A stretch of 64,000 nt of DNA from a virus: the IMG/VR virus record IMGVR_UViG_3300020424_000652; one strand, written 5' to 3'. The translations under genes and the position numbers were made by a program. This document shows, piece by piece, positions 30,034 to 57,076 of this stretch. The notes under the pieces were generated by a model that was not told where the DNA came from, did not search any database, and worked only from the letters and a program-made list of their open reading frames with translations. The stretch's first letter is position 1. Each line of letters opens with the position of its first letter.

Positions 30034-30039
30034 TAAATA
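30034..30039 (+). promoter_or_regulatory. Late promoter core heading the enzyme island
   Basis: TAAATA in the 30017-30062 gap, upstream of ATG 30063. Confidence 0.55.
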
Positions 30040-30062
30040 GTAGTAGCAACTGGATTATTACT

Positions 30063-30425
30063 ATGGATGAACGATTACAAAAAGCATTAGATTTTTCAAA
30101 CTACATGGTAACTCTTAATAACCAAAAGAGAGTGCTAAAGGAACAGTATTTTGAAAACAGAATTCATTACTTTAACGGTGGACAATTTTCTGTAACAAAT
30201 GAATTGTTATCTTTTGTAGGATTGCTATGCGAAAAAGGTGACACAACTAATATCCCTATCATTGACGATAATGATGTTCCTGTGAAAATACCTGATCTCA
30301 ATGTGTTCTTTGATGACATCATGGATGTCTACTTTCAATCTTCAAATGAATATCACGCAGAGTATGAAAAAATTAGAACTAAGAGAAAAGTTTCTGGGTT
30401 GGTAGACTATGACGAAGACAAATAA
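30063..30425 (+). CDS. Hypothetical protein (possible fibre-assembly chaperone)
   Basis: 120-aa ORF with GGA RBS; function inferred only from position. Confidence 0.4.
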   Translation: MDERLQKALDFSNYMVTLNNQKRVLKEQYFENRIHYFNGGQFSVTNELLSFVGLLCEKGDTTNIPIIDDNDVPVKIPDLNVFFDDIMDVYFQSSNEYHAEYEKIRTKRKVSGLVDYDEDK

Positions 30426-31269
30426 AGGTGCATTAATCTTTGCTAGAAACAATGCTCAGATTGATTATATAAAACAAGCACGTTTTTCTGCACAAAGAAT
30501 AAGAAAACATTTAGATATCCCAACTAGTATTGTTACTGATAGTGTTGAATATTTGCAAAACACTTACAAAGACTACAATGAAGTGTTTGATCAAGTAATA
30601 GAAGTACCATACAAAACAGAATTTACAAATAAAAAATATTTTGACGGTAGCGGAGTGTTCAAACATCTGCAATTTAAAAATGATTTACGCACAAAAGCCT
30701 ATGAACTTACTCCTTATGACGAAACTTTATTATTAGACAGCGATTATGTAATTGCAAATGATTTGTTTAAAAATTGTTTTGCACAAGAACACGATTTCTT
30801 AATATACAAAGATGCAAAGGATCTTACAAATTTCCGTGACACAGAAGAATTTCAAAAGATAAGTGATACAAGTGTAGATTTTTATTGGGCCACTGTAATA
30901 TATTTTAAAAAATCAGAACAAAACAAAATATTTTTTGACCTAACACAGCATATACAAGAAAACTGGGATCATTACAACAGCATATTCCAAGTAAACAAAG
31001 GAATATTTAGAAATGATCATGTGTTTAGTATAGCAATACACATCATGAATGGTTATCAAAAGGGTGACTTTGCACATAAGTTGCCTGGAATAAAATATTA
31101 TACAGCAGATAGAGATATCTTATGGGATCTTGAAGATGATAATTTTTTCTTTTTGTTAGAGAAACAAAATCATCTGGGAGAATATACACCTTTGCGTATC
31201 AAAGGTAGTAGTGTTCATGTTATGAACAAATTTAGTTTGAACAGAATCATAGATAAAGGAGAAATGTAA
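30409..31269 (+). CDS. GT-A fold nucleotide-diphospho-sugar transferase (GT8-like)
   Basis: YELTPYDETLLLDSD (DxD), FRNDHVFSIA, HVMNK. Confidence 0.7.
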   Translation: MTKTNKGALIFARNNAQIDYIKQARFSAQRIRKHLDIPTSIVTDSVEYLQNTYKDYNEVFDQVIEVPYKTEFTNKKYFDGSGVFKHLQFKNDLRTKAYELTPYDETLLLDSDYVIANDLFKNCFAQEHDFLIYKDAKDLTNFRDTEEFQKISDTSVDFYWATVIYFKKSEQNKIFFDLTQHIQENWDHYNSIFQVNKGIFRNDHVFSIAIHIMNGYQKGDFAHKLPGIKYYTADRDILWDLEDDNFFFLLEKQNHLGEYTPLRIKGSSVHVMNKFSLNRIIDKGEM

Positions 31270-31457
31270 TGGAAATAATCTGGGCTTTAATGTTGCAGGT
31301 ATGCAGTTCGTTAGGATGCCAAGATCAAATGGTTGCAGAATTCAACACACAAGATAATTGCCACATAGCACAATGGCAACATGAACAAATTCCAACTGAC
31401 GGTGCTTGGAAAAGTGTTGAGTATAAATGTATACCAAAAGGGAGCATAGGTGCATAA
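31269..31457 (+). CDS. Small four-Cys protein, YebW/DUF1482-like
   Basis: Hydrophobic N-terminus then VCSSLGCQD..VAEFNTQDNC...YKC; AAGGAGA RBS. Confidence 0.5.
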   Translation: MEIIWALMLQVCSSLGCQDQMVAEFNTQDNCHIAQWQHEQIPTDGAWKSVEYKCIPKGSIGA

Positions 31458-31596
31458 GATAGTTTACGTAACAGAGGAACATATTTCCTGTACAGGTGAG
31501 AATGATGATCACCCTAAGGTATATTACACACTTAAAAGTGGAGAAGCAGTATGTATGTACTGCAATATTAAATTTGTATTGAAAAAAGATGACTAA
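31450..31596 (+). CDS. zf-CHCC zinc-finger mini-protein (48 aa; not in ORF track)
   Basis: GTG start after GGGAG. MHKIVYVTEEHISCTGENDDHPKVYYTLKSGEAVCMYCNIKFVLKKDD matches the C-x-G...HPxVY...CxYC pattern and fills the gap between neighbours. Confidence 0.75.
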   Translation: MHKIVYVTEEHISCTGENDDHPKVYYTLKSGEAVCMYCNIKFVLKKDD

Positions 31597-32422
31597 AGGA
31601 TTTGTATTAATAGCACAAAACAGCGAATATGACTACGTACAACAGGCGTGTGCGTTGGCAATGAGTATACAAGCTACTAATGAAGCAAAGATTTGTTTAA
31701 TAACCAACGATAAAGTGCCATCTAGGTATGAAAAATTGTTTGATGTCATAAAACCTATACCTTGGTCCGATGATGCACAAAGCAAAGATTGGAAAGTAGA
31801 CAACAGATGGAAATTGTATCATGCAAGTCCATATGATCAAACTATTGTGTTGGATACAGATATGCTTGTACTACAAAATTTAGACAGTTGGTGGAAATTT
31901 TTAGAGAACTATGAAGTGTTTTATGTAAGTAACGTGCAAACATATCGCGGAGATACAGTAGTTGACAACTATTATAGAAAAACATACAAAGCAAACAACT
32001 TGCCAAACATATATGCAGGATTTCATTACTTTAAAAAATGTGCGTTTGCAAAAGAATTTTACACAATGTTAGAAATTGTAATGAACAACTGGGAAATGTT
32101 CTATGGCAAATATGCAAAGGAACAATATCAAAAGTTTTTAAGTGTTGATACAAGCACAGCCATTGTAACAAAAATATTAGATTGTGAAGATAGGATTACT
32201 AACAGCAGAGTTAAATTTCCTACTTTCACCCATATGAAAACACACATACAAGGTTGGAAGAATGCCAGTGCAACATGGCGCAGTAGAGTAGGTGCTTACT
32301 TGACAGACAACTTAGAACTAAAAATAGGCAACCATTTACAATCAGGAATATTTCATTACACGGAAAAAGAGTTTTTAGATGACAATAAAATTAAAAAATA
32401 CGAAAGGTATCTGAAAATATGA
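31589..32422 (+). CDS. GT-A fold sugar transferase (paralogue of 30409)
   Basis: YHASPYDQTIVLDTD (DxD), FTHMK. Confidence 0.7.
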   Translation: MTKGFVLIAQNSEYDYVQQACALAMSIQATNEAKICLITNDKVPSRYEKLFDVIKPIPWSDDAQSKDWKVDNRWKLYHASPYDQTIVLDTDMLVLQNLDSWWKFLENYEVFYVSNVQTYRGDTVVDNYYRKTYKANNLPNIYAGFHYFKKCAFAKEFYTMLEIVMNNWEMFYGKYAKEQYQKFLSVDTSTAIVTKILDCEDRITNSRVKFPTFTHMKTHIQGWKNASATWRSRVGAYLTDNLELKIGNHLQSGIFHYTEKEFLDDNKIKKYERYLKI

Positions 32423-33009
32423 AACTTTCGATAACATTAAAGAATGAGAGATTCGCTGTGTTTAATCCAGACACAGGGGAGCTACTGTCTTTGCCCAATG
32501 AAAAACCAACCCAAGGGTCTTACATACCAGTTGCTGAAGAAGATGTAAAACCTATTTTAGAGGGCAGAGACAGTATGCAATTTTATTATGTGCATTATAT
32601 TAAAAGAGCAAAAACATATGAGCTAAGACAAAGAGCAAATCATGACATTGATAGTTATTTTGTTGATGATATGATTTATGAAGTGCCAACAAGCAAACAA
32701 GATAATGCAGATATAACAATTACAAAAAATGTAAAAGATACCTGTTGGAAAGTTACAGTAGGAGGAGAATTGTACGAAAATATACTTGCACAAAAAATAA
32801 GTTTGGGCAACAGTAGGTTTAGTTTTAGTTGTACCAAGAAGGACGATCCTAATATTTTGTATAAAACAATTAAATTTACATTTGATAAATTGATAGACGG
32901 TAAGTACATTGTTGTTCCTTTCAGCGAAAAGTTTGAATTTAATAACGATCCTATTGGAGTGTATACAATTAAAAAGTTTGAAAAGTATGCGTATGAGGTG
33001 ATAGAATGA
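32419..33009 (+). CDS. Hypothetical protein
   Basis: 196 aa, coupled by ATGA overlaps on both sides. Confidence 0.5.
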   Translation: MKLSITLKNERFAVFNPDTGELLSLPNEKPTQGSYIPVAEEDVKPILEGRDSMQFYYVHYIKRAKTYELRQRANHDIDSYFVDDMIYEVPTSKQDNADITITKNVKDTCWKVTVGGELYENILAQKISLGNSRFSFSCTKKDDPNILYKTIKFTFDKLIDGKYIVVPFSEKFEFNNDPIGVYTIKKFEKYAYEVIE

Positions 33010-33899
33010 AACTAAACATAGCAGAGCAAGATATTATATTTTTAAGTTATGATGAGCCTAACTGTGAAAAAAATTATGTTGACCTTGTGTCTAAATGTCC
33101 ATGGGCTAAAAGAGTGCATGGTGTAGAAGGATCTGATGCGGCACATAAAGCCTGTGCTGAATTGTCAGAAACTAAACATTTTGTTACAGTGGATGGTGAC
33201 ACTATCATTGATCCTAATTTTCTAAATGTTGTTTTAGACTTAGATGAAATGGGAGTTGATGATGATTATCAATTTAGTTGGTGTGGCAAAATTAACATCA
33301 ATGGACTAAAATATGGTAACGGCAGTTTGAAAATGTGGACCAAAGATTTTGTTAAAAATATGAAAACGCATGAAAATACAGATGGCAGTGATGATACGCA
33401 AATAGAATTTTGTTATTTCGATAATTACTACCAAATGAATGACAACTTTAGTGAAAGTATTATTAATGCAACACCGCACCAAGCCTGGAGAGCAGGATTT
33501 AGAGAAGGTGTTAAGATGAGCTTAAACAGAGGAACAAAAGTTCAAGACGTTGCAAACGAAACATGGTGGCAAAATTATCATAGACTATTGATATGGATGA
33601 ATGTTGGCATGGACGTTGTTAATGGTGAATATGCAATACTTGGAGCAAGAGAAGGTTGCTATAAAGTTTTAGGAACAGATTGGGATCACAGTCAGACCAG
33701 AGACTTTACAATACTAAACCAACTATGGGAAGAAAAATGTTTTAAAGAATCGCCAGCTATAGAACGTATTACGCATCTTGGACAGAAATTACAAGAGCTA
33801 GAATTACCTATTAGCAAACAACCTCTTGATGCAAAGCAAAGTGAATTTTTCAAAACAGTTTACATCAACACCGAAAGGGTGCTTGGTAGAAAGTTTTAA
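33006..33899 (+). CDS. GT2-like glycosyltransferase
   Basis: IIFLSYDEP...RVHGVEG..AAH...FVTVDGD (DxD)...YGNGSLKMW...AWRAGFRE. Confidence 0.65.
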   Translation: MKLNIAEQDIIFLSYDEPNCEKNYVDLVSKCPWAKRVHGVEGSDAAHKACAELSETKHFVTVDGDTIIDPNFLNVVLDLDEMGVDDDYQFSWCGKININGLKYGNGSLKMWTKDFVKNMKTHENTDGSDDTQIEFCYFDNYYQMNDNFSESIINATPHQAWRAGFREGVKMSLNRGTKVQDVANETWWQNYHRLLIWMNVGMDVVNGEYAILGAREGCYKVLGTDWDHSQTRDFTILNQLWEEKCFKESPAIERITHLGQKLQELELPISKQPLDAKQSEFFKTVYINTERVLGRKF

Positions 33900-35278
33900 T
33901 GAGTGAATTAGATAAAATTAAACAGTTGATGCCTTTTATCGAAGATCAAACTTCGGAAACATTCTGCTTGGCCAAATGGCATCACACAACAATTTATCTT
34001 GCAACAGGCGAAACGCATAGTTGTTATCACCCTGCTCCGCATAAGATACCCTTAGAAGAACTTAAAAATAATCCAAGTGCGTTGCACAACACAATAGAAA
34101 AGAAAGCACAACGTAAGATGATGCTTGACGGTCATAAGCCAGATGGTTGTAGCTATTGTTGGAACATTGAATCTATGGGTAAAGACTTTGTAAGTGATAG
34201 ACACATTAAAACAACAAGCATTTACACAGAAGAAAGATTAGAAGAAATAAAAACAAAAGCCGCGGACTTCAATGTCAATCCAGAATACATAGAAATAAGT
34301 TTTAGTAACGAATGCAATTTCAAATGTGGATATTGTCACCCTAAAGCATCAAGTAGATATTGGAATGAAATAAAACAACATGGACCTTATGCAAAGTCTA
34401 CTGTTCATAGACAGGACATTGATTGGTTCAAGGTATATGCAAAGGAAGAAGAAAATCCTTACGTAGATGCATGGTGGGAATGGTGGCCAGAAGTAAGCAA
34501 AACTTTAAATATTTTACGTATCACTGGTGGTGAACCTTTGATGCACAAAAGTTTATGGGAACTGTTTGATAGATTAGACAAAGATCCCAAGCCACACTTA
34601 CAAATAGAAGTAAACAGCAACATGGGTGTTAAGCCCAAATTGGTACAAAAATTAACTGATACTGTTAAGAATTTGAAGAAAGATGGTAAGATTCGCAGTT
34701 TTAAATTGTACACTAGCATTGATACATGGGGACCTAAAGCCGAATATGCCAGAACAGGATTAGATATTGCTTTGTGGGAAAAGAATCTTGATTATTATCT
34801 AAGCAATACAGGTTGGCCAGTAACGTTTATGATTACATTTAATATCTTTAGTGTTACAAGTTTTCATTTGCTATTGGAAAAAATACTTGAATGGAGACGC
34901 AAGTACAACAGTGATAATAACAGCACCCAATGGCAACGCATAAGATTTGATACACCTCATTTAAAGGAACCAACTATATATGACATGAACATACTGCCAA
35001 AGGAAAAGTTTATGCCATTCATGTATAAACATTTACAATTTATGCAGGCACATCAAGATGACGCTGACAGGACAAAATTTAGTTCATTGGAAGTAGAAAA
35101 ATTTAGGCGTGTTGTTGTTTACATGGCATCAACACATTATGAGCCATTAAAGTTAGAACAAGCACACAAAGACTTTTATAATTGGTTCACTGAATTTGAT
35201 AAACGTAGAAATTGTAGTTTACCAGGTACGTTTCCTGAACTCAAAGGATTTTACAATGATTGTTCCAAAATGGTATAG
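33899..35278 (+). CDS. Radical SAM enzyme with N-terminal SPASM/Twitch-like domain (rSAM 1)
   Basis: CNFKCGYC (CxxxCxxC) and TGGEP; N-terminal FCLAKW...HSCYH...CSYCW. Confidence 0.9.
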   Translation: MSELDKIKQLMPFIEDQTSETFCLAKWHHTTIYLATGETHSCYHPAPHKIPLEELKNNPSALHNTIEKKAQRKMMLDGHKPDGCSYCWNIESMGKDFVSDRHIKTTSIYTEERLEEIKTKAADFNVNPEYIEISFSNECNFKCGYCHPKASSRYWNEIKQHGPYAKSTVHRQDIDWFKVYAKEEENPYVDAWWEWWPEVSKTLNILRITGGEPLMHKSLWELFDRLDKDPKPHLQIEVNSNMGVKPKLVQKLTDTVKNLKKDGKIRSFKLYTSIDTWGPKAEYARTGLDIALWEKNLDYYLSNTGWPVTFMITFNIFSVTSFHLLLEKILEWRRKYNSDNNSTQWQRIRFDTPHLKEPTIYDMNILPKEKFMPFMYKHLQFMQAHQDDADRTKFSSLEVEKFRRVVVYMASTHYEPLKLEQAHKDFYNWFTEFDKRRNCSLPGTFPELKGFYNDCSKMV

Positions 35279-36179
35279 TTTCAAACCTCATCATAGTCAT
35301 AAGGACGGATTGTTTGTTGATTGTAAAAAGATAATAATAAATCACAACAACATCAAACCGCCACACATTAATCAAGACGTGCAAAATACAGAATTTTGGA
35401 TCAAACGTAAAAGGAAAGAATGCACAGTAGTTCTAGGAGAGAGTTGGACATATGGCGAAAGTTTAATGAATCTTGTGTCATCTAATCAACATAAATTTGA
35501 CTTGGAAACACAAATTAACCATTGTTGGGGAACTACCACAGCTACTCTACTTGATACAGATTATTATCAATATGCAGTACCAGGTAACAACAATGCAACT
35601 ATTTTTGGAGCAGTTGAAAGGATTTTACAAACTGTATGTCCTCTATATGATACTGTGTATTTGCTGATACAGATGACAGAACCAGCCCGTGAAGAGATCA
35701 TTGTTAATGACTTACAGGAACAAAAACATCCACTTGCAAAACTTTACGACCAAGATTATGTAAAAGGAATGACGGTGAAGGAATGGTGTGTGCAAAATGA
35801 AGATATATTGTTTACACAACTAGAAACAACATTATCAAAATTTAAAAATGTTAAAACCACTGCATGGAAAAACTTTTGCACATTACAAAACAAAAATGAT
35901 TATAATTTTAAAATTTTAGAAGAAACATGGATTGAATTTAGTGCAAGGGTAAACGGACACAAAGTAAATAGCCCAGACTTTTATGTTGCAGGATGGTTAC
36001 AAAATTTTCTAAAAATATTTCCTGGTATAGAGCATACTATGGAATATTTTAATCAACAATTAGATTTGATTGAAGCATCAAATAAATTTTTAAAAGAATG
36101 TCATGACCATATACCACACCCAGGATCAGGTGCACACAAACTTTGGGGTTACAACGTATTTCAACTAATGGACAAGTAA
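35256..36179 (+). CDS. SGNH/GDSL-fold protein (possible acyl-esterase/transferase)
   Basis: LGESWT block I and C-terminal HIPHP; start reassigned to ATG 35256 after AAGGA. Confidence 0.55.
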   Translation: MIVPKWYSFKPHHSHKDGLFVDCKKIIINHNNIKPPHINQDVQNTEFWIKRKRKECTVVLGESWTYGESLMNLVSSNQHKFDLETQINHCWGTTTATLLDTDYYQYAVPGNNNATIFGAVERILQTVCPLYDTVYLLIQMTEPAREEIIVNDLQEQKHPLAKLYDQDYVKGMTVKEWCVQNEDILFTQLETTLSKFKNVKTTAWKNFCTLQNKNDYNFKILEETWIEFSARVNGHKVNSPDFYVAGWLQNFLKIFPGIEHTMEYFNQQLDLIEASNKFLKECHDHIPHPGSGAHKLWGYNVFQLMDK

Positions 36180-37354
36180 TGAGCAAAACAATTTGTATTT
36201 TACCATGGATTCATATGTACGTCAATGCCGACGGAAATGTTTTGCCTTGTTGCATAGGTGATTACAAACAACCTCTTGGTAATACACACAACAGAAGCAT
36301 AGACGATATATGGAACAGCCATGAATACAAAACATTAAGAAAACAATTAATGAATGGTGAAAAGCCTAGTGTATGTCATCAGTGCTGGAAACACGAAGAA
36401 GCAGGCAACAACAGTTCACGCATCAGTAACAACAAAAGATTCAAAGAAGACTTTCATATTGTGGATAAAACAAATACTGATGGTAGCTTAGACACCATGG
36501 ATCTACGATACTTTGATGTGCGTTGGAGCAATATTTGTAATTTTAAATGCAGAACTTGTAGTGCAACATACAGCAGTAATTGGGCAGTTGAAGATAATCA
36601 ACATGGAGACAACAAACCTGTGTACATTTTTGCAGGAGGCGACAGCAATGATAGTTTATATAATCAATTTAAACCTCACTTTAAAAATATAAAAGTTTTT
36701 TATTTTGCAGGTGGTGAGCCATTAATGACTGATAAGCATTATGAAATACTAGAACATCTAATTGAGACAGGCAACACAAAAGTAACATTAGAATACAATT
36801 CAAATGTAAGTAGATTAAAATACAAAAACAAAAGCATAATAGATTTATGGAACAAGTTTGAAAATGTTACTGTAAGTGCAAGTTTAGACAGTTGGGGATC
36901 ACGTGCAGAATACATACGTGAAGGAACTGACTGGGACAAAGTTGAAAGCAATTTGCAAACAATTAAAGAAAAATGTCCACACGTTAAGATAAGTTTTAAC
37001 ACAGTTGTAAGCATTTTTAATTTATGCACTCTAACAGATTTTTTAAAATACATCACAGCAAGGGGATTCAACACAAACAATGGCAGTTTGTATAACATTG
37101 TTGATCCTAATTATTATAGTGTTAGTGCTATGCCACAACAACTTAAAAACACAGCCAAAAGCAAGATTGAAGATTACATGAACGATAATCCTGGCAAATT
37201 TTCACATCAACTTAAAGGTGTTTTGCGTTACATAGACAATAGCAAGTTTGATGAAAATGCTTATAAGCTATTCAAAGCAAAAACTTTTTATTATGATAAA
37301 ATTAGGAATAGAGATTTTGTTGAAACATTTCCTGAATTGGTAGATGTAATTTAA
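36179..37354 (+). CDS. Radical SAM enzyme with N-terminal SPASM/Twitch-like domain (rSAM 2)
   Basis: CILPW...GNVLPCC...CHQCW, then CNFKCRTC and AGGEP; ATG 36179 overlaps the upstream TAA. Confidence 0.9.
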   Translation: MSKTICILPWIHMYVNADGNVLPCCIGDYKQPLGNTHNRSIDDIWNSHEYKTLRKQLMNGEKPSVCHQCWKHEEAGNNSSRISNNKRFKEDFHIVDKTNTDGSLDTMDLRYFDVRWSNICNFKCRTCSATYSSNWAVEDNQHGDNKPVYIFAGGDSNDSLYNQFKPHFKNIKVFYFAGGEPLMTDKHYEILEHLIETGNTKVTLEYNSNVSRLKYKNKSIIDLWNKFENVTVSASLDSWGSRAEYIREGTDWDKVESNLQTIKEKCPHVKISFNTVVSIFNLCTLTDFLKYITARGFNTNNGSLYNIVDPNYYSVSAMPQQLKNTAKSKIEDYMNDNPGKFSHQLKGVLRYIDNSKFDENAYKLFKAKTFYYDKIRNRDFVETFPELVDVI

Positions 37355-39496: not shown

Positions 39497-39512
39497 AGTG
39501 TTTAATTTTCCA

Positions 39513-39532
39513 TAAATACTACTATATTTATA
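39513..39532. promoter_or_regulatory. Face-to-face late promoter pair for divergent genes
   Basis: TAAATA on + (39513-39518) and TATAAATA on - (39525-39532) in the 62-nt divergent gap. Confidence 0.6.
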
Positions 39533-44755: not shown

Positions 44756-44756
44756 A

Positions 44757-48933: not shown

Positions 48934-49520
48934 GAAAAATAATTGTAACAGGCAGTGAAAGTGTAATAGGAAAAGCTATAATGGAGGGTCTGTGGTGGTT
49001 TGTTGATGATTACGAGATAATAGGACTTGATAAGAAAAATGGTCAAGATGTGCTAGACAATCTTGAGCTGATAGCAACAGCAGACATACTGATCAACAAC
49101 GCATATATTCCTGTAGATCAAAACGCATTGTTTATGGCTTGGTGTAAGACAAACAAGGACAAGGCCAAACTGTGTGTAAATATTAGCAGTCAAATTGCTA
49201 GTGCAGAAGATCCTAGCAAGTTTGCAACAGAACAGTATTACATAGATAAAAAGTATATGGACGAACAGAGTGTAGAGATAAACAAGAATCATTGGAAGTG
49301 CAAAGTTAGTGTAATAAGCCCTAACATCACTAAATCAAATTTATCTGAGCTAAACCTAGCAACGGGGCCTTTTAAAAAATGGGTTGAAAATTTATATAGT
49401 ACCCACGAAAAAAATGGTACTTTGATAAAAGAAGAATCAATATCAAATTGTGTAAAATACATAATTGAAAGTTGGTTAGAAGGAACACACATTTCAAGAA
49501 TAGAGGTTAGGAACCCATGA
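48930..49520 (+). CDS. Short atypical SDR-like oxidoreductase
   Basis: IIVTGSESVIG, INNA, NISS, YxxxK (YYIDK), ISP. Confidence 0.6.
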   Translation: MRKIIVTGSESVIGKAIMEGLWWFVDDYEIIGLDKKNGQDVLDNLELIATADILINNAYIPVDQNALFMAWCKTNKDKAKLCVNISSQIASAEDPSKFATEQYYIDKKYMDEQSVEINKNHWKCKVSVISPNITKSNLSELNLATGPFKKWVENLYSTHEKNGTLIKEESISNCVKYIIESWLEGTHISRIEVRNP

Positions 49521-50428
49521 AACTAACATACAAAGATCCTGCAAAAAATAATTGGTTCCTAGTCAGTTGGACATTGTCTAACAAGTGTAATTATAGATGT
49601 GAATACTGTCCAGACATATTACATAATGGAAGTACAGGACAACCTCAATGGTCAACTGTAAAAAGATTTGTGCAAAACTTTAATTTAAAAGATAAAAAAA
49701 TTTGTTATAGATTAAGTGGAGGAGAACCCACTTATTGGAAACACTTTATTGATCTTGCAGAACTTGTTAAAGAAGAAGGTCACAAGTTTACCTTTGTAAG
49801 TAATGGCAGTCAAAGTCCTGAGTATTTTAAAAAGATTGCTCCTTACACAGATGGTATGATGTTAAGTTATCATAAAGCATACGCAAATCCTGAACATTTC
49901 ATAAAAATTATAAATGAAAGCAAAATAGAAACTGTGATAAACATGATGTTATTGCCTAGTGACTTCGAAGAAATTTTTGCACTTGCTGAAAAAATTTATA
50001 GCTCAACTGCAAGAGCTAGTATAGTTCCTAAGGTTATAGTTGACAAAACAAGTTCTGAAAACATCACAAATGAAGTTATGACATACACAGAAGCACAAAA
50101 ACAATTAATTAAAGATTGGCCTTTTTCACGTAAAGTAAATGATGAAGAATTACATAGGGGTGCTATGATGTTAAATGATGAAGTTGTAAATGCTAATGAT
50201 TTAATATTGCAAGATAAAAACAAGTTTAGTGGTTGGAACTGTTGGGCAGGATTACACGGAGTCAATATAGATATGTGGGGAAATATGTATAGGGCTGACT
50301 GTCAGTTTGGCGGAGCAATAGGAAACTTAGAAAGATACAAACTGCCAAAGGAAAAAATACTTTGTGGCAAAGAAAGATGCAGTTGTTTAAGCGACATATA
50401 CATAAGGAAAGAAAATGAAAAAGTATAA
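49517..50428 (+). CDS. Radical SAM enzyme with C-terminal Twitch-like domain (rSAM 6; paralogue of rSAM 3)
   Basis: CNYRCEYC, SGGEP; WNCWAG...RADC...CGKERCSC. Confidence 0.9.
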   Translation: MKLTYKDPAKNNWFLVSWTLSNKCNYRCEYCPDILHNGSTGQPQWSTVKRFVQNFNLKDKKICYRLSGGEPTYWKHFIDLAELVKEEGHKFTFVSNGSQSPEYFKKIAPYTDGMMLSYHKAYANPEHFIKIINESKIETVINMMLLPSDFEEIFALAEKIYSSTARASIVPKVIVDKTSSENITNEVMTYTEAQKQLIKDWPFSRKVNDEELHRGAMMLNDEVVNANDLILQDKNKFSGWNCWAGLHGVNIDMWGNMYRADCQFGGAIGNLERYKLPKEKILCGKERCSCLSDIYIRKENEKV

Positions 50429-50606
50429 AATTGGATTAATTCAGGCAGTTATAGTTTTAGTGCCAACATACTTGGTAGCATATCTCACAGATAAGATGGT
50501 TTATACCATTCCAATGTTAGCGGCCGCAAGTTTTATTGCCGCATCATTTAGTAAAGACACAACTACTAAACGTATTGATGATATCTCTAAAGAAGGTAAA
50601 GATTAA
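50415..50606 (+). CDS. Small two-helix membrane protein
   Basis: 63 aa with two hydrophobic stretches; AAGGA RBS; coupled to the next gene. Confidence 0.55.
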   Translation: MKKYKIGLIQAVIVLVPTYLVAYLTDKMVYTIPMLAAASFIAASFSKDTTTKRIDDISKEGKD

Positions 50607-51157
50607 TGAAAATATTAGTTACAGGTAATCCAAACTATGAAGGACTATGCAAAGGCATATACGAAGCATACAATCGTAATTTTGTAGAATTTATAGGAAG
50701 ATGGAATGGTTGGGATCTTACAGATTATGAAAAGGTGGCAAACTATGCCAAGTCATATGATGTATTTGTTAACAGCCAATACGGTCCTAACGGAGAACAA
50801 GTTGAGCTGTTAGATGCTGTATATGAAAAGTTTGATAGCGGACACATAATAAACATCAGCAGTACAAGTTCTTACTGGGGTGATGGTTACAGTCCTAGAA
50901 ACTATATTGAAAATAAAACTTTGCTTGACGGAAGAAGCAAAAGGTTAGCAAAAAATGTATGCTGGGGTGACAGTAAAATACGGATTAGTAATATTGCTTT
51001 TGGTCAACTAAACAGTCAAAGTCAAAAAAATAAAGATGATACTAGACACAAGATAAGTTTGCTCGAAGCAGGAAAATATGTGAAGTGGGTAATAGATTCA
51101 CCTCGTGATATTAATCTACATTATATTGCTTTGGATCCTATCCAAACAGGGGAGTAA
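50606..51157 (+). CDS. Short atypical SDR-like oxidoreductase
   Basis: ILVTG..., DVFVN, IINISS, YxxxK (YIENK). Confidence 0.6.
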   Translation: MKILVTGNPNYEGLCKGIYEAYNRNFVEFIGRWNGWDLTDYEKVANYAKSYDVFVNSQYGPNGEQVELLDAVYEKFDSGHIINISSTSSYWGDGYSPRNYIENKTLLDGRSKRLAKNVCWGDSKIRISNIAFGQLNSQSQKNKDDTRHKISLLEAGKYVKWVIDSPRDINLHYIALDPIQTGE

Positions 51158-52262
51158 GTTCTGGACAATGATCTAGTACTCTTGTGTTTCTAATTTTATC
51201 TAAATCATTTGTGTAGTTTATAAAAGCATCAATATACTTAGGTGCTTGTTCAGATTGTGTATAATTTATCTTAGGTAATCTAAAATCAATCTTATCTAAT
51301 ATCTCGTTAGGCAAAACTCTTGGATTCAAATAAGGAGGGGCTGTAACCACGTTGTTGAAATATATTTCCCAGTTGTCTTTTTTGTTTTCTTCAAACCACC
51401 AATGTATTTTATCAAGGTGTGCTATGTTGTAAGCCATCACAGTCACAGCAATAATTATTCTATCAAAATCATATTGTTTTAAATTTTCATTTAGTTGTTC
51501 AAATGTAAAGTTTTTTCCGCCTCGAATGTATTCATATAAACCATCTGTGCCTTCCAAACTCACAGTCCATTTTGTTTCCTTGTATTGTTTGGCCAATTGA
51601 GCGACTTCTTCATCTACTATTGTGCCATTAGTAGTCCAGTCTATAGTTATGTTCTTTGCTATTCCTAAATCAATAAATTTTTTAAGTATCAATTTATTTG
51701 CAGGTTCCATGTAAGGTTCGCCACCTTTGATGCTAAGATATCTCAAGTTCATGAATGGTGTTGGATCCTCAAACAGTCTAGCAACTATTTCATCGCTTTT
51801 ATTGGTGTATCCGAATTCTGGATCATCTATTCTACGTCCATAGGGGTTACCGTTTTGTGCTAATTTAAGATCATCTTTTACCCAAGCACTTGAATTTATT
51901 CCATCGCACATTCTACACTTTAGGTTACAGATATTGCTCATATTGAATTCCAAAAAGTAGATATCTGTGAAGTTTTTGGAGTAATCATAATTGGTATTTT
52001 CTAGCATTGGATTCAAAATATCTTTGAAAAATAATCTCCTGCTATGACCCACAGAGAGCTCTTTTAAAGCACATTGTTGACACTCGGGCGGTAAGTGGCC
52101 CGCTCTTATTGAATCACGTGTGTATGACGCTGTATAGCTGTTTAAAAGGTCATTTAAAGACGATTCTAGCACGTTTCCGTAACGTTTTAAGTACACACCA
52201 TCAGGTACTATGTCACCATTAAAACGTACCAAAATACTATGCCATGGTGCGAAGCATTTCAT
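51138..52262 (-). CDS. Radical SAM enzyme with degenerate N-terminal Twitch-like domain (rSAM 7)
   Basis: CFAPW...GDIVPDG...CQQC, then CNLKCRMC and KGGEP; start ATG 52262 after GGAG. Confidence 0.9.
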   Translation of the reverse strand: MKCFAPWHSILVRFNGDIVPDGVYLKRYGNVLESSLNDLLNSYTASYTRDSIRAGHLPPECQQCALKELSVGHSRRLFFKDILNPMLENTNYDYSKNFTDIYFLEFNMSNICNLKCRMCDGINSSAWVKDDLKLAQNGNPYGRRIDDPEFGYTNKSDEIVARLFEDPTPFMNLRYLSIKGGEPYMEPANKLILKKFIDLGIAKNITIDWTTNGTIVDEEVAQLAKQYKETKWTVSLEGTDGLYEYIRGGKNFTFEQLNENLKQYDFDRIIIAVTVMAYNIAHLDKIHWWFEENKKDNWEIYFNNVVTAPPYLNPRVLPNEILDKIDFRLPKINYTQSEQAPKYIDAFINYTNDLDKIRNTRVLDHCPELTPLFG

Positions 52263-52701
52263 CGTATTTTTCTCCAAAAGCTGATCGTAGATCGCTTTCC
52301 ATTTTTGTTTGAATTTCCTGTGGTGAATATATTCCTACGTTATCCCAATCTACAAGATAAGTGTTATCTCCATCTAAAAGTATATTGCTTAACACCCAAT
52401 CATAGTGTGCATATGGCAAAGTTTGATCTAATGTTTCATTACAAAAAGTGTATATCCTTTTAAAAAATTTTGGTGTGTGTGGCACTTTGTTTGCCGGCGT
52501 GCCAGGTACTATATGATAATCTATGAACATACTATTTTTTGTTGTGCCATAATCTAATACATATCCTGGTATCACTTTGTCTAAAATAGATATGTGTTCT
52601 TCTAAGGCAAACTCATCATGGATATACCAAACCTTACGATATCTATCATCTAACTTGTAAACTTCTCTTTTCTTTTCTATATTCTTTTTAATTAATTCCA
52701 T
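52237..52701 (-). CDS. Minimal protein-kinase-like fold phosphotransferase (APH/RIO/Kdo-kinase-like)
   Basis: Catalytic loop HYDWVLSNIL and metal-binding LVDWD; only 154 aa. Confidence 0.65.
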   Translation of the reverse strand: MELIKKNIEKKREVYKLDDRYRKVWYIHDEFALEEHISILDKVIPGYVLDYGTTKNSMFIDYHIVPGTPANKVPHTPKFFKRIYTFCNETLDQTLPYAHYDWVLSNILLDGDNTYLVDWDNVGIYSPQEIQTKMESDLRSAFGEKYDEMLRTMA

Positions 52702-53722
52702 AGTATCCTGCCACTTCTGGTAAGTATTCCTTGATGCTACAACCTCTATTTTTATCTAACACACCTATCCACTTTTTAAATTCTTCCTGCTTTTCAATAC
52801 TTGTAGGGTGATTCATCCAGTAATCAAAATGTGCAATATTATCTTTCATTGCCTGTGGTGCATTTTTTATGTGTAGACAATCTGGAGTCATTAGCAAGTT
52901 ATCAAATATTTCTAATTGGTTTGCCTGTGCATATTCAACATAGTCATCATATTCTAAAACATTCATTATTTGCACAGTAGGACCTAAACTTACATCAGCT
53001 ACCTCTCTAAATTTATTAAGGTTGTATTCTACAACGTCCCAATTACTACCCCAACGTATGTAATCATTTGTTCTGCCTATACCATCAATGCTAAAGTTCA
53101 TGTTCACACGTTCGAATCTTTTAAGTTCATTAAAAACTTTCGGATTAAACAATGTACCATTAGTGTTAAATCTTACTTCAACTGATGGATCTAGTTTTGC
53201 AAGAAACTTGTTTAGTCCTTTCACCATCATAGGTTCACCACCTGTAAGATATACTTCTCTTAAATTAGGATTACGTGCTAATGTTTCTCCCTGCTCATCT
53301 GTATACCAGTTGTATAAGCCATAGTCAAACCAACCCCATGGGCTTTCGCCTTTTGCCTTTAGTTCTTTGTGTTCTTCGTACAAACTACTAGAACTACCTG
53401 GGTAACACATGGTACAACGTAAATTACATTGGTTTCCAAACCTTATATCCAAATGACTTATACCAGGACCATATTCTCTTGGTCTTTGACGCATACTTGG
53501 TCTACCAGCTTCTTCCATCAGCTTACATTTTTTACAAGCATCTGGCCATTCATTGTTAGCAAGTTGCTCACGTGCTTTTGTAGGTGTTTCACTTGCTAAC
53601 CATTGTTCTGGAGTCATTTGTTTTATGTTTTCTTTGTTTGTCTTTTCATTACTAATGCAACACAAACGAAACTCGCCATCAGGGCGTATCATTACTTGAT
53701 GATCTAAATACTTACACCTCAC
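52688..53722 (-). CDS. Radical SAM enzyme with N-terminal SPASM/Twitch-like domain (rSAM 8)
   Basis: MRC...GEFRLCC...CKKC, then CNLRCTMC and TGGEP. Confidence 0.9.
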   Translation of the reverse strand: MRCKYLDHQVMIRPDGEFRLCCISNEKTNKENIKQMTPEQWLASETPTKAREQLANNEWPDACKKCKLMEEAGRPSMRQRPREYGPGISHLDIRFGNQCNLRCTMCYPGSSSSLYEEHKELKAKGESPWGWFDYGLYNWYTDEQGETLARNPNLREVYLTGGEPMMVKGLNKFLAKLDPSVEVRFNTNGTLFNPKVFNELKRFERVNMNFSIDGIGRTNDYIRWGSNWDVVEYNLNKFREVADVSLGPTVQIMNVLEYDDYVEYAQANQLEIFDNLLMTPDCLHIKNAPQAMKDNIAHFDYWMNHPTSIEKQEEFKKWIGVLDKNRGCSIKEYLPEVAGYYGIN

Positions 53723-54740
53723 CGCAAGTTACCTCACAAATTTTAAACCTATTTTCACTAGACCAACTTTCAGGCAGATCTTGTGCAAAGAAAGGACTGT
53801 CTAATATAACTTCCAAAGGCATATCATTTACATTAAGCCAATCTACTTTTGATACTTCTTGTGCATAAGGGCTTTCTACTTCTCTTGGATATCTGTCAGA
53901 TAGCATATAGCAACAAGGAAATACTTCACCAACATGGCTAACTTGTATTTTTCTTTTCTTTTGCCATTTACAAGTTATACATGATTTCTTGAATCCATCA
54001 GCCAAACTGCCATGTTTTTGTTTCAAATCTTTTAAACGTTTTAAATTATCTAGTTTGCTTGTATCGTATTTTATTGTACGAGCTTGTTCCCGTTTGTTGG
54101 CTTTAAATTTTTCTATTGCTTTATTAACCATACTATTCATAGCAGTAAAAGTATGTCCACCATTTATATCAAATTTTGCAAATCCCATTTTTTTACTTAA
54201 TTCTTCTGCTTGTTCTAATTGATGTGCATTGTGTTCAAACACCAACATACGCCATCTTCCTAATCCACCTGCGTCTAAAAATGCTTGGGCGTTTTCCATT
54301 ACCTTATTCCATTTAACATTTCTTCTGTAAAGATGATTTGTATCTTCTAAACCGTCTATGCTAAAAACTACATGAGTTGGAAATGGAAAGTCTTTTAATT
54401 TATTTGCTAGTTCATCAAAGTATTTAGGCTGTCTCATACCACCATTGGTATGTATATGGATAATAGGTTTTTTGTAGTTTTTTAAATAATCCAAACATTC
54501 AAACAAGTGTGGACTTACCAAAGGATCTCCATATGATCCATTGAATACAATCTGATTGATGTTTCTTAAAACATTCTCACTGAACAGATTTTTGAATGTT
54601 GCAGGACTCATATGTTCAAGAGGCATACGTGGATTTACTTCTACTCCACCTAAATTTCTTGAACAGTTACCACACATAGCATTACAATGAGCAGTAAAAT
54701 CTACTGTAATCGTATCTATATCTTCTATATCCAAATACAT
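53712..54740 (-). CDS. Radical SAM enzyme with C-terminal SPASM/Twitch domain (rSAM 9; paralogue of rSAM 4)
   Basis: CNAMCGNC, GSYGDP, HTNG, FSIDG; CKW...GEVFPCC...CEVTC. Start reassigned to ATG 54740 (MYLDIEDI aligns with MYKIEDI of rSAM 4). Confidence 0.9.
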   Translation of the reverse strand: MYLDIEDIDTITVDFTAHCNAMCGNCSRNLGGVEVNPRMPLEHMSPATFKNLFSENVLRNINQIVFNGSYGDPLVSPHLFECLDYLKNYKKPIIHIHTNGGMRQPKYFDELANKLKDFPFPTHVVFSIDGLEDTNHLYRRNVKWNKVMENAQAFLDAGGLGRWRMLVFEHNAHQLEQAEELSKKMGFAKFDINGGHTFTAMNSMVNKAIEKFKANKREQARTIKYDTSKLDNLKRLKDLKQKHGSLADGFKKSCITCKWQKKRKIQVSHVGEVFPCCYMLSDRYPREVESPYAQEVSKVDWLNVNDMPLEVILDSPFFAQDLPESWSSENRFKICEVTCGEV

Positions 54741-54742
54741 GA

Positions 54743-54754
54743 TAAGTATATTTA
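54743..54754. promoter_or_regulatory. Abutting divergent late promoter pair
   Basis: TAAGTA on + (54743-54748) directly followed by TATTTA, i.e. TAAATA on - (54749-54754), in the 35-nt divergent gap. Confidence 0.5.
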
Positions 54755-54775
54755 ACTGAATTATAAGGTAGTTTA

Positions 54776-55486
54776 ATGGATATAGAACATACAAAAACCC
54801 TGGAAACATTCTGGAAAGAACACAAAAAAGACGTAAATTTTTTATACCAAGATGTATTTGACCCAATGTGGTTAGTTGAAGAATCGCATTGGCCTTTCTT
54901 TAAACTATCAGCACTGGACAATCAACCCTGGGCTAAAATGCACAACGAAGCAGAAAGTTTGTTAGAGTCTTTTCACGATCATAGAGATGATTATGGCTAT
55001 GGTTGGAAGAGCTTAACAATACATGGATTAGATGATGATACTCAAACATTAGACAGTTATGGTGATAGAGACAAAGTAATTAAACAATTAGATTGGACAT
55101 GGGTAGCAGACAAGTGTCCTACTGTGAAAACTTTTTTAAAAGATGTATGGCCTATGGAGTATCTCAATAGAGTAAGATTTATGTTGCTGGAACCAGGAGG
55201 ATATATTTTGCCTCATCAAGATAGAGATGCAAAAGAAAAAAGATTAAGTGTATGCAACATAGCCTTAAACAATCCTGATGACTGTGAATTTATTTTTAAG
55301 GATCATGGAGTCGTGCCTTTCCAAGATAAAGGCGGTGCGTTTTTAATGGACATCAGCAACGTTCATGCAGTATGGAACAAAAGTGATGTACCAAGGATAC
55401 ACATGATAATACATGGTGAAGTTGGTAGAAGATTACGTGATATGTTTTATGTGTTAAGACAAAGTTATTACACTAATAGGGGATAA
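54776..55486 (+). CDS. Aspartyl/asparaginyl beta-hydroxylase-like 2OG-Fe(II) oxygenase
   Basis: RVRFMLLEPGGYILPHQD (HxD)...HAVWNKSDVPRIHMIIH. Confidence 0.8.
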   Translation: MDIEHTKTLETFWKEHKKDVNFLYQDVFDPMWLVEESHWPFFKLSALDNQPWAKMHNEAESLLESFHDHRDDYGYGWKSLTIHGLDDDTQTLDSYGDRDKVIKQLDWTWVADKCPTVKTFLKDVWPMEYLNRVRFMLLEPGGYILPHQDRDAKEKRLSVCNIALNNPDDCEFIFKDHGVVPFQDKGGAFLMDISNVHAVWNKSDVPRIHMIIHGEVGRRLRDMFYVLRQSYYTNRG

Positions 55487-55487
55487 A

Positions 55488-55613
55488 ATGTTAACTTGGT
55501 TTTTAGTAGGAATATTAGCTGGCTTGTTCATTAGATGTACTTGTAAGCCACACAAATCTGTTGACGACAAGTTCAAAGATCCTTGGAACTGGACAGGGTT
55601 CGGAGGCGGTTAA
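55488..55613 (+). CDS. 41-aa small ORF (hydrophobic N-terminus, CTC, C-terminal WNWTGFGGG); not in ORF track
   Basis: ATG 55488 after AGGGG. MLTWFLVGILAGLFIRCTCKPHKSVDDKFKDPWNWTGFGGG; its stop overlaps the next ATG (TAATG) and it fills the gap exactly. Confidence 0.7.
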   Translation: MLTWFLVGILAGLFIRCTCKPHKSVDDKFKDPWNWTGFGGG

Positions 55614-57076
55614 TGAAAGACTGGAACAGTTTAACACACGATAGATACTATGAGGATCATCAATCAAATAATCAAGTAGGCATAGGCATACTTAATATTT
55701 CAAGAGATATAAAAAATGAATTTGTAAGTAAACGTTGTTTAGAAATGACTTACTTTTACATCAATAGAATGATGAAAATGAAAGTTGCAGATTACGTTGG
55801 CAGTTGGCACAAGGTTGAAAACATTCTCGAAAACAGTCTTGCAAAAGGACATGAATATTGTATAGTGGCCGCACAAGGATTGTTGCTTTATAGGGGTCCT
55901 AATCTAGTAGAACAAAGTTTAAAATATGCAAAAGAAAATCCTAACTTCTTTGTTTGTGGACACATCATGGACAAAAAAGGACAAAATCATTATGCAACCA
56001 AAGGAGCATATCCTGGTTTGCATAGGCAGTATCTTTTTGTTAATCTAAAAGTTTGGGAGCAACTTGGCAAACCTCCTTTTGATGAACTAGGAATATTTAG
56101 AGACAGAATGCCTAAGTTACAAAATTTTAAATTAAGTGAAGAAAAGATTCATGCTGAATATACACCTGCTTGGATTGATACTGCTGAGGGAGAAAAACAT
56201 TGGACAAAAACATCAGACGGTAGTAATTGGATTGATATTGCTTTAAGGTCAAATATCAAAATTGATAATCTAACAAATGACATGAGGGCTTGTAAAGTAT
56301 TTCTTTATCCATATAACAAATCAGACATTCTTTCAAAGAGCTGGATACAAAAAGATTATTGGCAAGTTGAAGAATTAAATTATAATCAAAAGGCTTGGTT
56401 ACGTAAATTAGACCAACAGGAAAAGATAGAAAAGGATCGTGTTTATGCTTTTAATACAGAAACTTTATCTGGCGAAGGTAAACGCACAGAAAACATTGAT
56501 CATTTGTTTAGTGTGGCCGCTGGATTCAAACCTTTGTCTATATTAAACACAAATGGATTCAATGATAACACAAAAATACATTACTTTGATTGGTGCGATG
56601 CAAGTTTATTATATAAAAGAGACCTTATAGAAACGTGGAATGGGGTCGATTTACACCTGTGGCTGTTGGAACATGATCTAAAGTATAACTTTGCCTCAAC
56701 GTATAGAGGCAATTACGAGCCATTTTGGCAACAAGAATTACAAGACTTTGGTGGTGCTGAAGCATTTAAAAAACTATGGGATAGGTATGTAAACCTTGAA
56801 CACAATTATTACAAAATAGATATTGTAAACGAACCAACAAACCTTTTTAATATTATCAAAGCACAGGAAGGCAACAAAGTTTTATGGACTACCAATGTAT
56901 GGTCAAGTGAAATGTTGCATTGGAATCAAGGTCCAGATCAACTTAAAATCAAATGGAACAAATTTAAAAGTTTGGTACCTGATGATTTAATTTTGTATGG
57001 TGATGATTATTGTGCTATTGATATGCGTCAAAGCATACGTGACAATTTAAATATAAGTTATCCTGAATTTAATTAG
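55613..57076 (+). CDS. Hypothetical two-domain enzyme (GT-A-like N-half, possible Rossmann/SAM-binding C-half)
   Basis: Start ATG 55613 after GGAGG. YLFVNLKVWEQLGKP resembles a GT-A strand/helix; LFSVAAGFK...IHYFDW resembles methyltransferase motifs I/II. Confidence 0.4.
   Translation: MKDWNSLTHDRYYEDHQSNNQVGIGILNISRDIKNEFVSKRCLEMTYFYINRMMKMKVADYVGSWHKVENILENSLAKGHEYCIVAAQGLLLYRGPNLVEQSLKYAKENPNFFVCGHIMDKKGQNHYATKGAYPGLHRQYLFVNLKVWEQLGKPPFDELGIFRDRMPKLQNFKLSEEKIHAEYTPAWIDTAEGEKHWTKTSDGSNWIDIALRSNIKIDNLTNDMRACKVFLYPYNKSDILSKSWIQKDYWQVEELNYNQKAWLRKLDQQEKIEKDRVYAFNTETLSGEGKRTENIDHLFSVAAGFKPLSILNTNGFNDNTKIHYFDWCDASLLYKRDLIETWNGVDLHLWLLEHDLKYNFASTYRGNYEPFWQQELQDFGGAEAFKKLWDRYVNLEHNYYKIDIVNEPTNLFNIIKAQEGNKVLWTTNVWSSEMLHWNQGPDQLKIKWNKFKSLVPDDLILYGDDYCAIDMRQSIRDNLNISYPEFN

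Follow-up and report, generated by a model that had tools for sequence, protein, structure and literature searches.

IMGVR_UViG_3300020424_000652 is a virus record of 64,000 nucleotides (nt) from IMG/VR, here called the window in its entirety, and contains among its tail genes an island of closely packed enzyme genes. An earlier note, made from the DNA letters alone, described positions 30034-57076 as about 30 tightly coupled genes for radical S-adenosylmethionine (rSAM) enzymes, glycosyltransferases, and other tailoring enzymes, and proposed a late cytoplasmic line acting on virion proteins. The island is confirmed as real: a coherent set of soluble enzymes, driven from late-type promoter motifs, with a nucleotide-sugar arm and several glycosyltransferases. 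Both the coordinates and the gene content of that description hold, with approximately 32 densely packed open reading frames (ORFs) between 30063 and 57076, arranged as three or four units across the two strands. The chemistry of this tailoring pathway is probably centered on sugars. A late cytoplasmic line that builds a glycan, tailors it by radical chemistry, and decorates virion proteins is the reading adopted below, with somewhat less than even confidence.

Radical SAM enzymes, glycosyltransferases, and sugar supply

Nine island proteins score above the PF04055 cut-off (35.7-54.5 bits against 29.5), as the earlier count of nine CxxxCxxC rSAM enzymes had anticipated; the motif is present in all nine translations and invariant in alignments of the rSAM classes. 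Sequence comparison assigns the nine to three classes: five N-twitch, two type B, and two type C enzymes. The N-twitch proteins are full-length members of NF033640 (N_Twi_rSAM; cut-off 170 bits, scores in Table 1), whereas the other four reach 34-45 bits and are not members. Mutual identity among the five N-twitch paralogs is merely 24-31%, and in four of them the Pfam SPASM domain lies at residues 3-85, ahead of Radical_SAM. The start of the type C gene at 53712 is probably the ATG at 54740 rather than the TTG at 54866; its orthologs are 342 aa long.

The best solved matches are BtrN for the twitch domain (the N-twitch profile's twitch domain aligns with that of BtrN, E 2.4e-6), BlsE cytosylglucuronate decarboxylase for the type C profile (E 6e-5), and viperin-like enzymes for the type B profile (E 1e-11, N-terminal half), all of them partial matches far below family cut-offs, and the domain order of BtrN is inverted in the N-twitch enzymes. 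BlsE belongs to a nucleoside antibiotic pathway, in which it decarboxylates a glucuronide; viperin is a nucleotide dehydratase, and BtrN acts in an aminoglycoside pathway. BlsE-like type C enzymes co-occur in the island with a dehydrogenase that forms uronic acids. The name of NF033640 describes an architecture alone; a search for a characterized member, and a sequence search for a solved structure, found none in the family. At E 1e-30 its profile retrieves over 7000 cluster representatives, and in many members two or three complete N-twitch rSAM units are fused in tandem (800-1470 aa). Some N-twitch enzymes are fused to tetratricopeptide (TPR) repeats, which hints at protein partners.

No island protein attains a Pfam glycosyltransferase cut-off. 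Five glycosyltransferases are nevertheless confirmed (two GT8-like, two GT2-like of GT-A fold, and one of GT-B fold), where the earlier note had counted four clear GT-A transferases and up to three further candidates. The family profile of the GT8-like proteins 30409 and 31589 matches glycogenin in the PDB (E 2.7e-5, N-terminal 108 positions only), and the DxD motif of this family is invariant; Atlas gave GT8/Mannosyl_trans3 as a lead only, and Pfam PF01501 gave no match to either protein even at E 10.

The two GT2-like proteins, 33006 and 41578, correspond to types that are fused into one protein of ~530 aa in many other phages, and DGD/DAD is conserved in their family. The predicted structure of 41578 matches RmlT, ppGalNAc-T, and K4CP in Foldseek (probability 1.0), and also SunS and PBCV-1 A64R. 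With VIA the top Z is 11.4 (rmsd 2.9 over 140 residues), and the rows are mostly glycosyltransferases but also contain IspD/MobA-type nucleotidyltransferases of the same GT-A fold. Pfam GT2 families are matched by 7 of 37 homologs, at up to 3e-6. Because 41578 falls below the PF00535 cut-off (E 0.035; 14.5 bits against 23.3), and 33006 gives no match to it, the two are filed as GT2-like proteins of GT-A fold and not as GT2 members.

The GT-B model has 72 Foldseek matches at E <=1e-3; among the matches listed nearly all are GT-B, and the top ones have probability 1.0. In VIA, fucosyltransferases (Z 11.3; rmsd 5.2 over 275 residues) and T4 DNA beta-glucosyltransferase (Z 11.1) are tied. This protein has no sequence match in the libraries and no tblastn match in 50,697 phage records, and the PDB profile searches returned nothing for the GT-B, GT-A, or SGNH-like families.

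Sugar supply is represented by Ugd-like, HAD, and nucleotidyltransferase genes, which, like the AspH-like gene, are supported by family matches, in keeping with the earlier note. The N-terminal and central Pfam domains of the Ugd-like protein pass; the C-terminal UDP-binding domain scores 22.1 bits against a cut-off of 30, and TIGR03026 gives 169.6 bits, slightly under 189.8. The GGAC catalytic Cys motif is present in the sequence. Transmembrane segments are predicted in the 96-aa protein of the supply cassette only, every other island protein being predicted soluble. As previously claimed, no flippase, polymerase, or export gene is seen in the island, and no transmembrane glycosyltransferase is seen either.

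Conservation, promoter motifs, and neighboring genes

In the 64-kb window lie genes for baseplate hub and wedge proteins, a 4907-aa ORF, and a number of fiber genes. Its gp6-like wedge protein is 32-36% identical to proteins of Rak2/Atu_ph07/SCTP-2/GAP32-type jumbo phages; cultured phage DNA holds no near-identical counterpart to the island sequence. The nearest record among those compared, a 75-kb IMG/VR fragment (G001), shares 75% of sampled words with the window; its completeness rating of 20% would correspond to a genome of ~350 kb (CheckV estimates, related contigs). A pattern search with the wedge C-terminus retrieved 527 related viral loci, and the product of 47629 has hundreds of homologs at 70-91% identity in marine metagenomes, Tara samples included. 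By these counts the lineage is very abundant in the ocean.

N-twitch rSAM genes are held by eight of ten large contigs with the wedge gene; the other two stop short of the region. Seven of the eight contain five copies, and the eighth has one, at the contig end. The island is syntenic in all eight informative contigs, as a conserved core of the lineage. Synteny is also found in Tara contigs, at 56-91% protein identity. In the relative G002, island proteins are 43-82% identical to those of the window, compared with 64-91% for structural genes (fibers 64-73%, wedge C-terminus 68%), and we consider the island to be about as conserved as the structural genes. The variable parts are the segment around 43191-47038 (HAD, nucleotidyltransferase, 245-aa gene, and 43191) and 48930-49520. 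None of the four supply-cassette genes was found in G002, and in L011 the 96-aa gene has an 85% ortholog and the other three were not found; the L011 island carries aminotransferase, QueC-like, and flavodoxin-like genes elsewhere. Such variation of the cassette between lineages is what would be expected if glycan composition varied.

A particular order (fiber gene, 120-aa gene, two GT8-like genes, 196-aa gene, GT-A, rSAM) recurs in the contigs G002, L019, and L020, with divergent SGNH-like and GT-B genes in the latter two, and in the cultured Ralstonia jumbo phage RsoM2USA (MG752970.1). In this phage a minimal syntenic module, ORF354-347, directly follows the fiber-like ORF355 and consists of 123-aa, two GT8-like, 184-aa, GT-A, N-twitch rSAM, GT-A, and methyltransferase-like genes, 34-42% identical to those of the island (35% for ORF349 against 33899); the 184-aa gene occupies the 32419 position without a BLAST match. 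The module lies downstream of the same order of baseplate, giant-protein, and fiber genes. The synteny check proposed in the earlier note therefore finds the island beside fiber genes in relatives as distant as a Ralstonia phage. The RsoM2USA block differs from the island in having one rSAM gene (a second copy lies elsewhere in the genome) and no Ugd, GT-B, or SGNH-like genes. All module genes are annotated as hypothetical, and the RsoM2USA paper, which does not discuss them, includes SDS-PAGE of the virion and contains no glycan data. Among the 50,697 phage records searched, none besides RsoM2USA has the GT8-like or GT-A genes.

A different phage contig, L017, holds a compact set of N-twitch rSAM, SGNH-like (the 37351 type), two GT-B-like, and Ugd genes, with Ugd adjoining the N-twitch genes. 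Schizo-T4 Vibrio phages (Vibrio phage K566, L009, and phages of the KVP40 type) have one to five clustered N-twitch rSAM genes, which lie near NAD salvage genes in K566; the annotations of these genes go no further than MoaA/NifB/PqqE-family or QueE. These Vibrio clusters were rejected as equivalents of the island, with which they have only rSAM genes in common.

Chromosomal counterparts are found in Bdellovibrionales metagenome-assembled genome (MAG) contigs of up to 937 kb (L118, L122, L123, and L126), where an operon in the order of window 41578-48933 encodes GT-A (37-41% identity), type B rSAM (50%), type C rSAM, methyltransferase-like, and N-twitch rSAM (47-49%) proteins, with one GT-A to three to five rSAM genes. 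An FG-GAP/ASPIC-like 822-aa protein is encoded near the operon in L123. Several other "bacterial" matches accompanied by phage structural genes are probably mis-binned phage contigs. The bacterial MAG GCA_027401895.1 (L101/L103; 61% GC) has an operon of NTP-transferase, about ten rSAM, GDSL-like, and AsnB genes; its rSAM types include N-twitch (among them a TPR-fused double form), type B, and B12-binding enzymes, and the upstream genes are unrelated.

The earlier note stated that the transcription units start at the TAAATA-type motif of the baseplate genes, and the positions of the motif fit this. ATAAATA has seven copies in the 64 kb (both strands), each of them in sense orientation and no more than 60 nt upstream of a gene start: at the wedge gene, 23132, a fiber gene, the Mtd_N fiber-like gene, 63122-63412 on the minus strand, and both strands of 39512-39532. 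The longer form TATAAATA is depleted in the window (2 observed, 7.9 expected). At the position equivalent to the 30034 motif G002 carries TTTAAATAG, and the divergent element at 39512-39532 is conserved in L011, G002, and L019. The ATAAATA elements are late-type, candidate T4-type late promoters, and the common motif supports co-regulation of the island with the structural genes. A near-consensus sigma70 promoter (TTGACA-17-TATAAT) lies at 61408-61470 on the minus strand, upstream of an unrelated 435-aa gene (60100-61407); host-type and T4-late-type promoters thus both seem to be in use in this phage.

Fibers on both flanks, another claim of the earlier note, stand in part: four genes with PHROG fiber matches lie directly upstream and a Mtd_N gene downstream, whereas the 497-aa protein at 55583 is not a fiber and has no family match in the libraries searched. 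Homologs of fiber 29126 stand before the module in L019, L020, and RsoM2USA. Restriction of this fiber to module-bearing phages was ruled out, as PA5oct-like phages have homologs and no match to the module's GT8, GT-A, or GT-B proteins. The 4907-aa ORF (8387-23110) directly follows the wedge gene, and counterparts at that place in RsoM2USA (2541 aa), Phosso, Atu_ph07, and XaC1 are annotated as virion structural proteins. The wedge protein ends (8195-8387) in a Ser/Thr-rich tail of ~60 residues with a long poly-Ser run and always Tyr at the end, which is retained with variable length across the marine lineage and may serve as a linker or as a site of glycosylation. As a test of linkage to the island the tail was dropped, since all members of the marine lineage have both and offer no contrast.

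Among the remaining island genes, several earlier assignments have weakened. Methyltransferase, two SDR-like, and kinase-like functions have sub-threshold matches only; the methyltransferase-like gene (47028) is conserved as RsoM2USA ORF347 and in the Bdellovibrionales operons. The three proteins called SGNH have no Pfam, NCBIfam, or PDB-profile match and were named from motifs, those of 37351 and 40728 (Table 1) agreeing with the Ser, Gly, Asn, and His blocks of SGNH/GDSL hydrolases; one of them, 35196, has no homolog in L011, L019, L020, or G002. The acetyltransferase (GNAT) call for 43191 finds no support in any library. No family match was obtained for the 120-aa and 196-aa proteins, and for the island's uncharacterized proteins PHROGs returned next to nothing and Pfam at E 10 merely a faint GT2 hint. 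Two small Cys-containing ORFs lie between the GT8-like genes at 31269-31596 (62 aa with a hydrophobic N-terminus, and 48 aa resembling a zinc ribbon), and an ORF of 41 aa, hydrophobic at its N-terminus and with WNW near its end, lies at 55488-55613. All three were rejected as conserved substrates: the G002 genes follow one another without a gap at either site, and in L011 the site of the 41-aa ORF is taken by a flavodoxin-like gene.

Table 1. Features of the island and its flanks in order of position in the window
Feature	Position	Strand	Remarks
Four tail-fiber-like genes	23750-25783, 25793-27604, 27634-29121, 29126-30016	+	PHROG tail fiber, tail collar, virion structural matches; common N-terminal module
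TAAATA late-type motif CTAAATAG	30034-30039	+	24 nt upstream of first island gene
Conserved 120-aa protein	30063-30425	+	Always after fiber gene; orthologs in L019, L020, G002, RsoM2USA ORF354
GT8-like GT-A a	30409-31269	+	Glycogenin profile match; 37% identity to RsoM2USA ORF353
GT8-like GT-A b	31589-32422	+	Paralog of 30409; same family profile, DxD
Conserved 196-aa protein	32419-33009	+	Orthologs in L019, L020, G002
GT2-like GT-A, N-terminal type of pair	33006-33899	+	Paralog of 41578; 42% identity to RsoM2USA ORF350
rSAM N-twitch (NF033640)	33899-35278	+	312 bits; PF04055 37.3 bits; 82-91% identity in relatives
Lineage-specific ORF, SGNH-like in the earlier note	35196-36179	+	No family match
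rSAM N-twitch (NF033640)	36143-37354	+	400 bits; SPASM residues 18-82, Radical_SAM 129-299
SGNH-like by motif only	37351-38229	-	GCSFT, GAGN, DGHP; invariant in 5 orthologs
GT-B fold glycosyltransferase, 429 aa	38207-39496	-	AF2 model, pLDDT 91.7
Divergent late-type promoter palindrome (candidate)	39512-39532	both	ATAAATA + at 39512-39518; TATAAATA - at 39525-39532
NDP-sugar 6-dehydrogenase, Ugd-like	39559-40731	+	Three UDPG_MGDP_dh domains
SGNH-like by motif only	40728-41606	+	GDSNS motif
GT2-like GT-A, C-terminal type of pair	41578-42282	+	AF2 model, pLDDT 93.3, GT-A fold
rSAM type B	42269-43231	+	Viperin-like N-terminal half, C-terminal Cys motif; PF04055 54.5 bits
Variable ORF	43191-43775	+	No library match; replaced in L011, G002
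rSAM type C, C-terminal SPASM	43763-44755	+	PF04055
Variable supply cassette	44757-47038	+	96-aa membrane protein, 245-aa protein, HAD, nucleotidyltransferase
HAD beta-PGM-like hydrolase	45760-46344	+	Confirmed by family matches
Sugar-1-P nucleotidyltransferase, RmlA/GlmU-type	46334-47038	+	Confirmed by family matches
Methyltransferase-like (weak)	47028-47636	+	Methyltransf_25 E 0.0047, below cut-off
rSAM N-twitch (NF033640)	47629-48933	+	426 bits
Short SDR-like (weak)	48930-49520	+	E 0.0016, sub-threshold
rSAM type B	49517-50428	+	Paralog of 42269; PF04055
Short SDR-like (weak)	50606-51157	+	E 5e-4, sub-threshold
rSAM N-twitch (NF033640)	51138-52277	-	224 bits
Small kinase-like (weak)	52237-52701	-	HxDxxxxN...D motif; Kdo kinase E 0.038
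rSAM N-twitch (NF033640)	52688-53722	-	248 bits
rSAM type C, C-terminal SPASM	53712-54740	-	PF04055
Second divergent, palindrome-like element ATAAGTATATTTA	54743-54754	TAAATA on minus	Conserved in G002, L011
AspH-like Fe/2OG oxygenase	54776-55486	+	PF05118 45.3 bits; HxD...H
Conserved ~490-aa protein (497 aa in window), island end	55583-57076	+	Orthologs in L011, G002 at 63-70%
Mtd_N-domain fiber-like gene	57073-58437	-	Downstream flank; own TATAAATA candidate promoter

The proposed pathway and its alternatives

In the proposed pathway, the HAD beta-phosphoglucomutase-like enzyme, the sugar-1-phosphate nucleotidyltransferase, and the NDP-sugar 6-dehydrogenase would make activated sugars, including an NDP-hexuronic acid; in relatives this supply arm is replaced by other cassettes. 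The five soluble glycosyltransferases would then assemble an oligosaccharide directly on a cytoplasmic acceptor without a lipid carrier. SGNH-like, methyltransferase-like, kinase-like, and AspH-like proteins may add decorations to the glycan, and the nine rSAM enzymes may edit its sugars by oxidation, decarboxylation, epimerization, or dehydration. The acceptor would most likely be a virion protein from the fiber and baseplate set encoded around the island.

A sugar-centered pathway is considered probable because glycosyltransferases and sugar-nucleotide enzymes recur as partners of the rSAM enzymes in phages and in bacteria, sugars or nucleotides are the substrates of the nearest solved relatives, and an enzyme for a uronic-acid donor stands beside BlsE-like enzymes. 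The acceptor is placed in the cytoplasm because the five glycosyltransferases are soluble and no lipid-carrier or export function is seen. A virion protein is named as the most likely acceptor because the module keeps a fixed position behind a fiber gene in distant phages and is preceded by the promoter motif of structural genes; this assignment is tentative, the virion target being inferred from position and timing only.

Several observations weigh against a virion acceptor. Position beside the fibers may only reflect gene order conserved in related phages. The Bdellovibrionales cassette has no homolog of the window's fiber genes within 10 kb, so that linkage to fibers is no inherent property of it. 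No glycosyltransferase is seen in the 29 kb examined of the L101/L103 operon, which suits a soluble product equally well. The Ser/Thr-rich wedge tail, a possible acceptor, is missing in RsoM2USA, which still carries the minimal module (and is also missing in Phosso, Atu_ph07, SCTP-2, and XaC1). In L019 the left module is headed by a near-consensus sigma70 promoter (TTGACA-17-TACTAT; 9270-9335, reverse strand), and lineages may differ in when this module is expressed. T4 DNA beta-glucosyltransferase resembles the GT-B model as closely as any other GT-B enzyme does. Finally, the weak best match of the kinase-like protein is Kdo kinase, and GT8 includes transferases of the lipopolysaccharide (LPS) core, which are soluble too.

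The last two points favor modification of the host envelope, in which the LPS core, O-chain, or another surface glycan would be altered from the cytoplasmic face, blocking superinfection or adsorption to debris. The earlier note regarded the absence of export genes as evidence against such conversion, a step that does not follow, because soluble GT8 enzymes act on the LPS core at the inner membrane face; what stands of its proposal is a soluble, late-motif enzyme set fixed beside fibers. The AspH family also includes the lipid A hydroxylase LpxO, and O-chain modification has been proposed for fiber regions with similar genes in marine T4-like phages (PMC7029224). Envelope conversion would pay off early, whereas the promoter motifs are late-type and common to structural genes; there is no flippase, polymerase, Gtr-type, or membrane-anchored enzyme in view, the island is a conserved lineage core rather than a hypervariable cassette, and the minimal module occurs in phages of Ralstonia and of marine bacteria, hosts with differing envelopes. 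On balance we regard an envelope target as unlikely, though as a rival to be taken seriously. A soluble metabolite, such as a heavily tailored nucleotide-sugar or nucleoside-type inhibitor or signal, is judged equally doubtful. It would suit the L101/L103 operon, which starts with NTP-transferase followed by about ten rSAM genes with no glycosyltransferase or export gene in view, the excess of rSAM genes over GT-A in Bdellovibrionales, and the kinship with BlsE, viperin, and BtrN (enzymes of nucleoside antibiotic, nucleotide, and aminoglycoside chemistry); these last matches are weak and part-length, however, no transporter is encoded, fiber-gene linkage is fixed across distant phages, and five glycosyltransferases of three folds suggest an oligosaccharide on an acceptor.

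Hypermodification of DNA, by which the glycosyltransferases and rSAM enzymes would build a glycan or adduct on phage DNA after replication, stays alive because the GT-B model is close to T4 beta-glucosyltransferase (VIA Z 11.1, and ~10 with another phage glycosyltransferase and with T4 alpha-glucosyltransferase). Late-expressed DNA modification exists (Mu Mom); late timing, part of the earlier note's argument, does not by itself speak against it, and the attachment of multi-sugar glycans to phage DNA is described in a preprint (10.1101/2023.12.21.572611). It is nonetheless rated highly improbable because searches of relatives up to 75% complete turned up neither a ThyA-family hydroxymethylase nor a Tet/JBP gene and because the island lies inside the fiber module, under the structural-gene motif. 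In addition, we know of no DNA glycosyltransferases among GT8 and GT2-type enzymes. No more can be said for radical chemistry on peptides or proteins, in which SPASM/twitch enzymes would cross-link or epimerize a peptide or virion protein in the manner of peptides that ribosomes make and that are then modified (RiPPs), with sugar enzymes secondary. SPASM/twitch enzymes are typical peptide maturases, the island enzymes have weak NCBIfam matches to many maturase families, TPR fusions occur in NF033640, and the small ORFs at 31269-31596 (Cys-rich) and 55488-55613 could be substrates; these ORFs are not conserved in relatives, where no conserved substrate gene is seen, neither a RiPP recognition element nor a protease or exporter is in view, and the rSAM partners conserved across phages and bacteria are sugar enzymes. 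This alternative is accordingly given very little weight.

The virion-decorating glycan line can also be put in a more far-reaching and distinctly speculative form. N-twitch rSAM enzymes with viperin-like and BlsE-like partners would perform a new radical editing of protein-linked sugars, coating the host-contacting fibers of giant phages with a glycan that ordinary enzymes could neither make nor cleave, and predatory Bdellovibrio-type bacteria might use the same editing. We think it unlikely that this joint proposal is correct in full.

Comparison with known systems

The closest described architecture is the host recognition cluster of pelagimyophages and cyanomyophages, in which tail-fiber genes are mixed with GT8, UDP-glucose 6-dehydrogenase, rSAM cassettes, and Asp/Asn beta-hydroxylase, and for which modification or conversion of the host O-chain was proposed (PMC7029224; Zaragoza-Solas et al. 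2020). The island shows the same mix of tail-fiber, GT8-like, Ugd-like, rSAM, and AspH-like genes and is therefore not new in kind, such fiber regions having been described in 2020. In contrast to those T4-like phages, the phage examined here has an estimated genome of ~350 kb and a Rak2/Atu_ph07-type baseplate, and whereas the host recognition cluster is hypervariable, the island is a conserved core with one variable sub-cassette and nine rSAM genes. The present case contributes this conserved, non-hypervariable version in an abundant jumbo-phage lineage, together with fold-level evidence for its glycosyltransferases from predicted structures, the conservation of bidirectional late-type elements, and a confirmation, reached independently, of the links to RsoM2USA and Bdellovibrionales. 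An abundant lineage devotes ~27 kb under structural-gene motifs to a set with nine rSAM enzymes, five of them from a family, NF033640, with thousands of members. Should the product be an envelope change or a free metabolite, the island would amount to an extensive auxiliary pathway that has yet to be explored. Because RsoM2USA can be cultured and shares the minimal module, the matter is open to bench tests.

Virus-encoded glycosylation of virion proteins in the cytoplasm is known from the chlorovirus PBCV-1 capsid, mimivirus fibrils, and the capsid and tail tube of mycobacteriophage (Freeman et al. 2023, cited by PMC12619734). The island resembles these systems in combining soluble virus-encoded glycosyltransferases with sugar-nucleotide enzymes and in its proposed independence from the host's lipid-linked export route, and the GT-A domain of PBCV-1 A64R is among the fold matches of 41578; the glycoprotein here is putative. 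To our knowledge, none of the PBCV-1, mimivirus, and mycobacteriophage systems uses rSAM enzymes. If the product of the island does decorate the virion, it could explain resistance to degradation or tuning of adsorption, and radical chemistry would join phage glycobiology.

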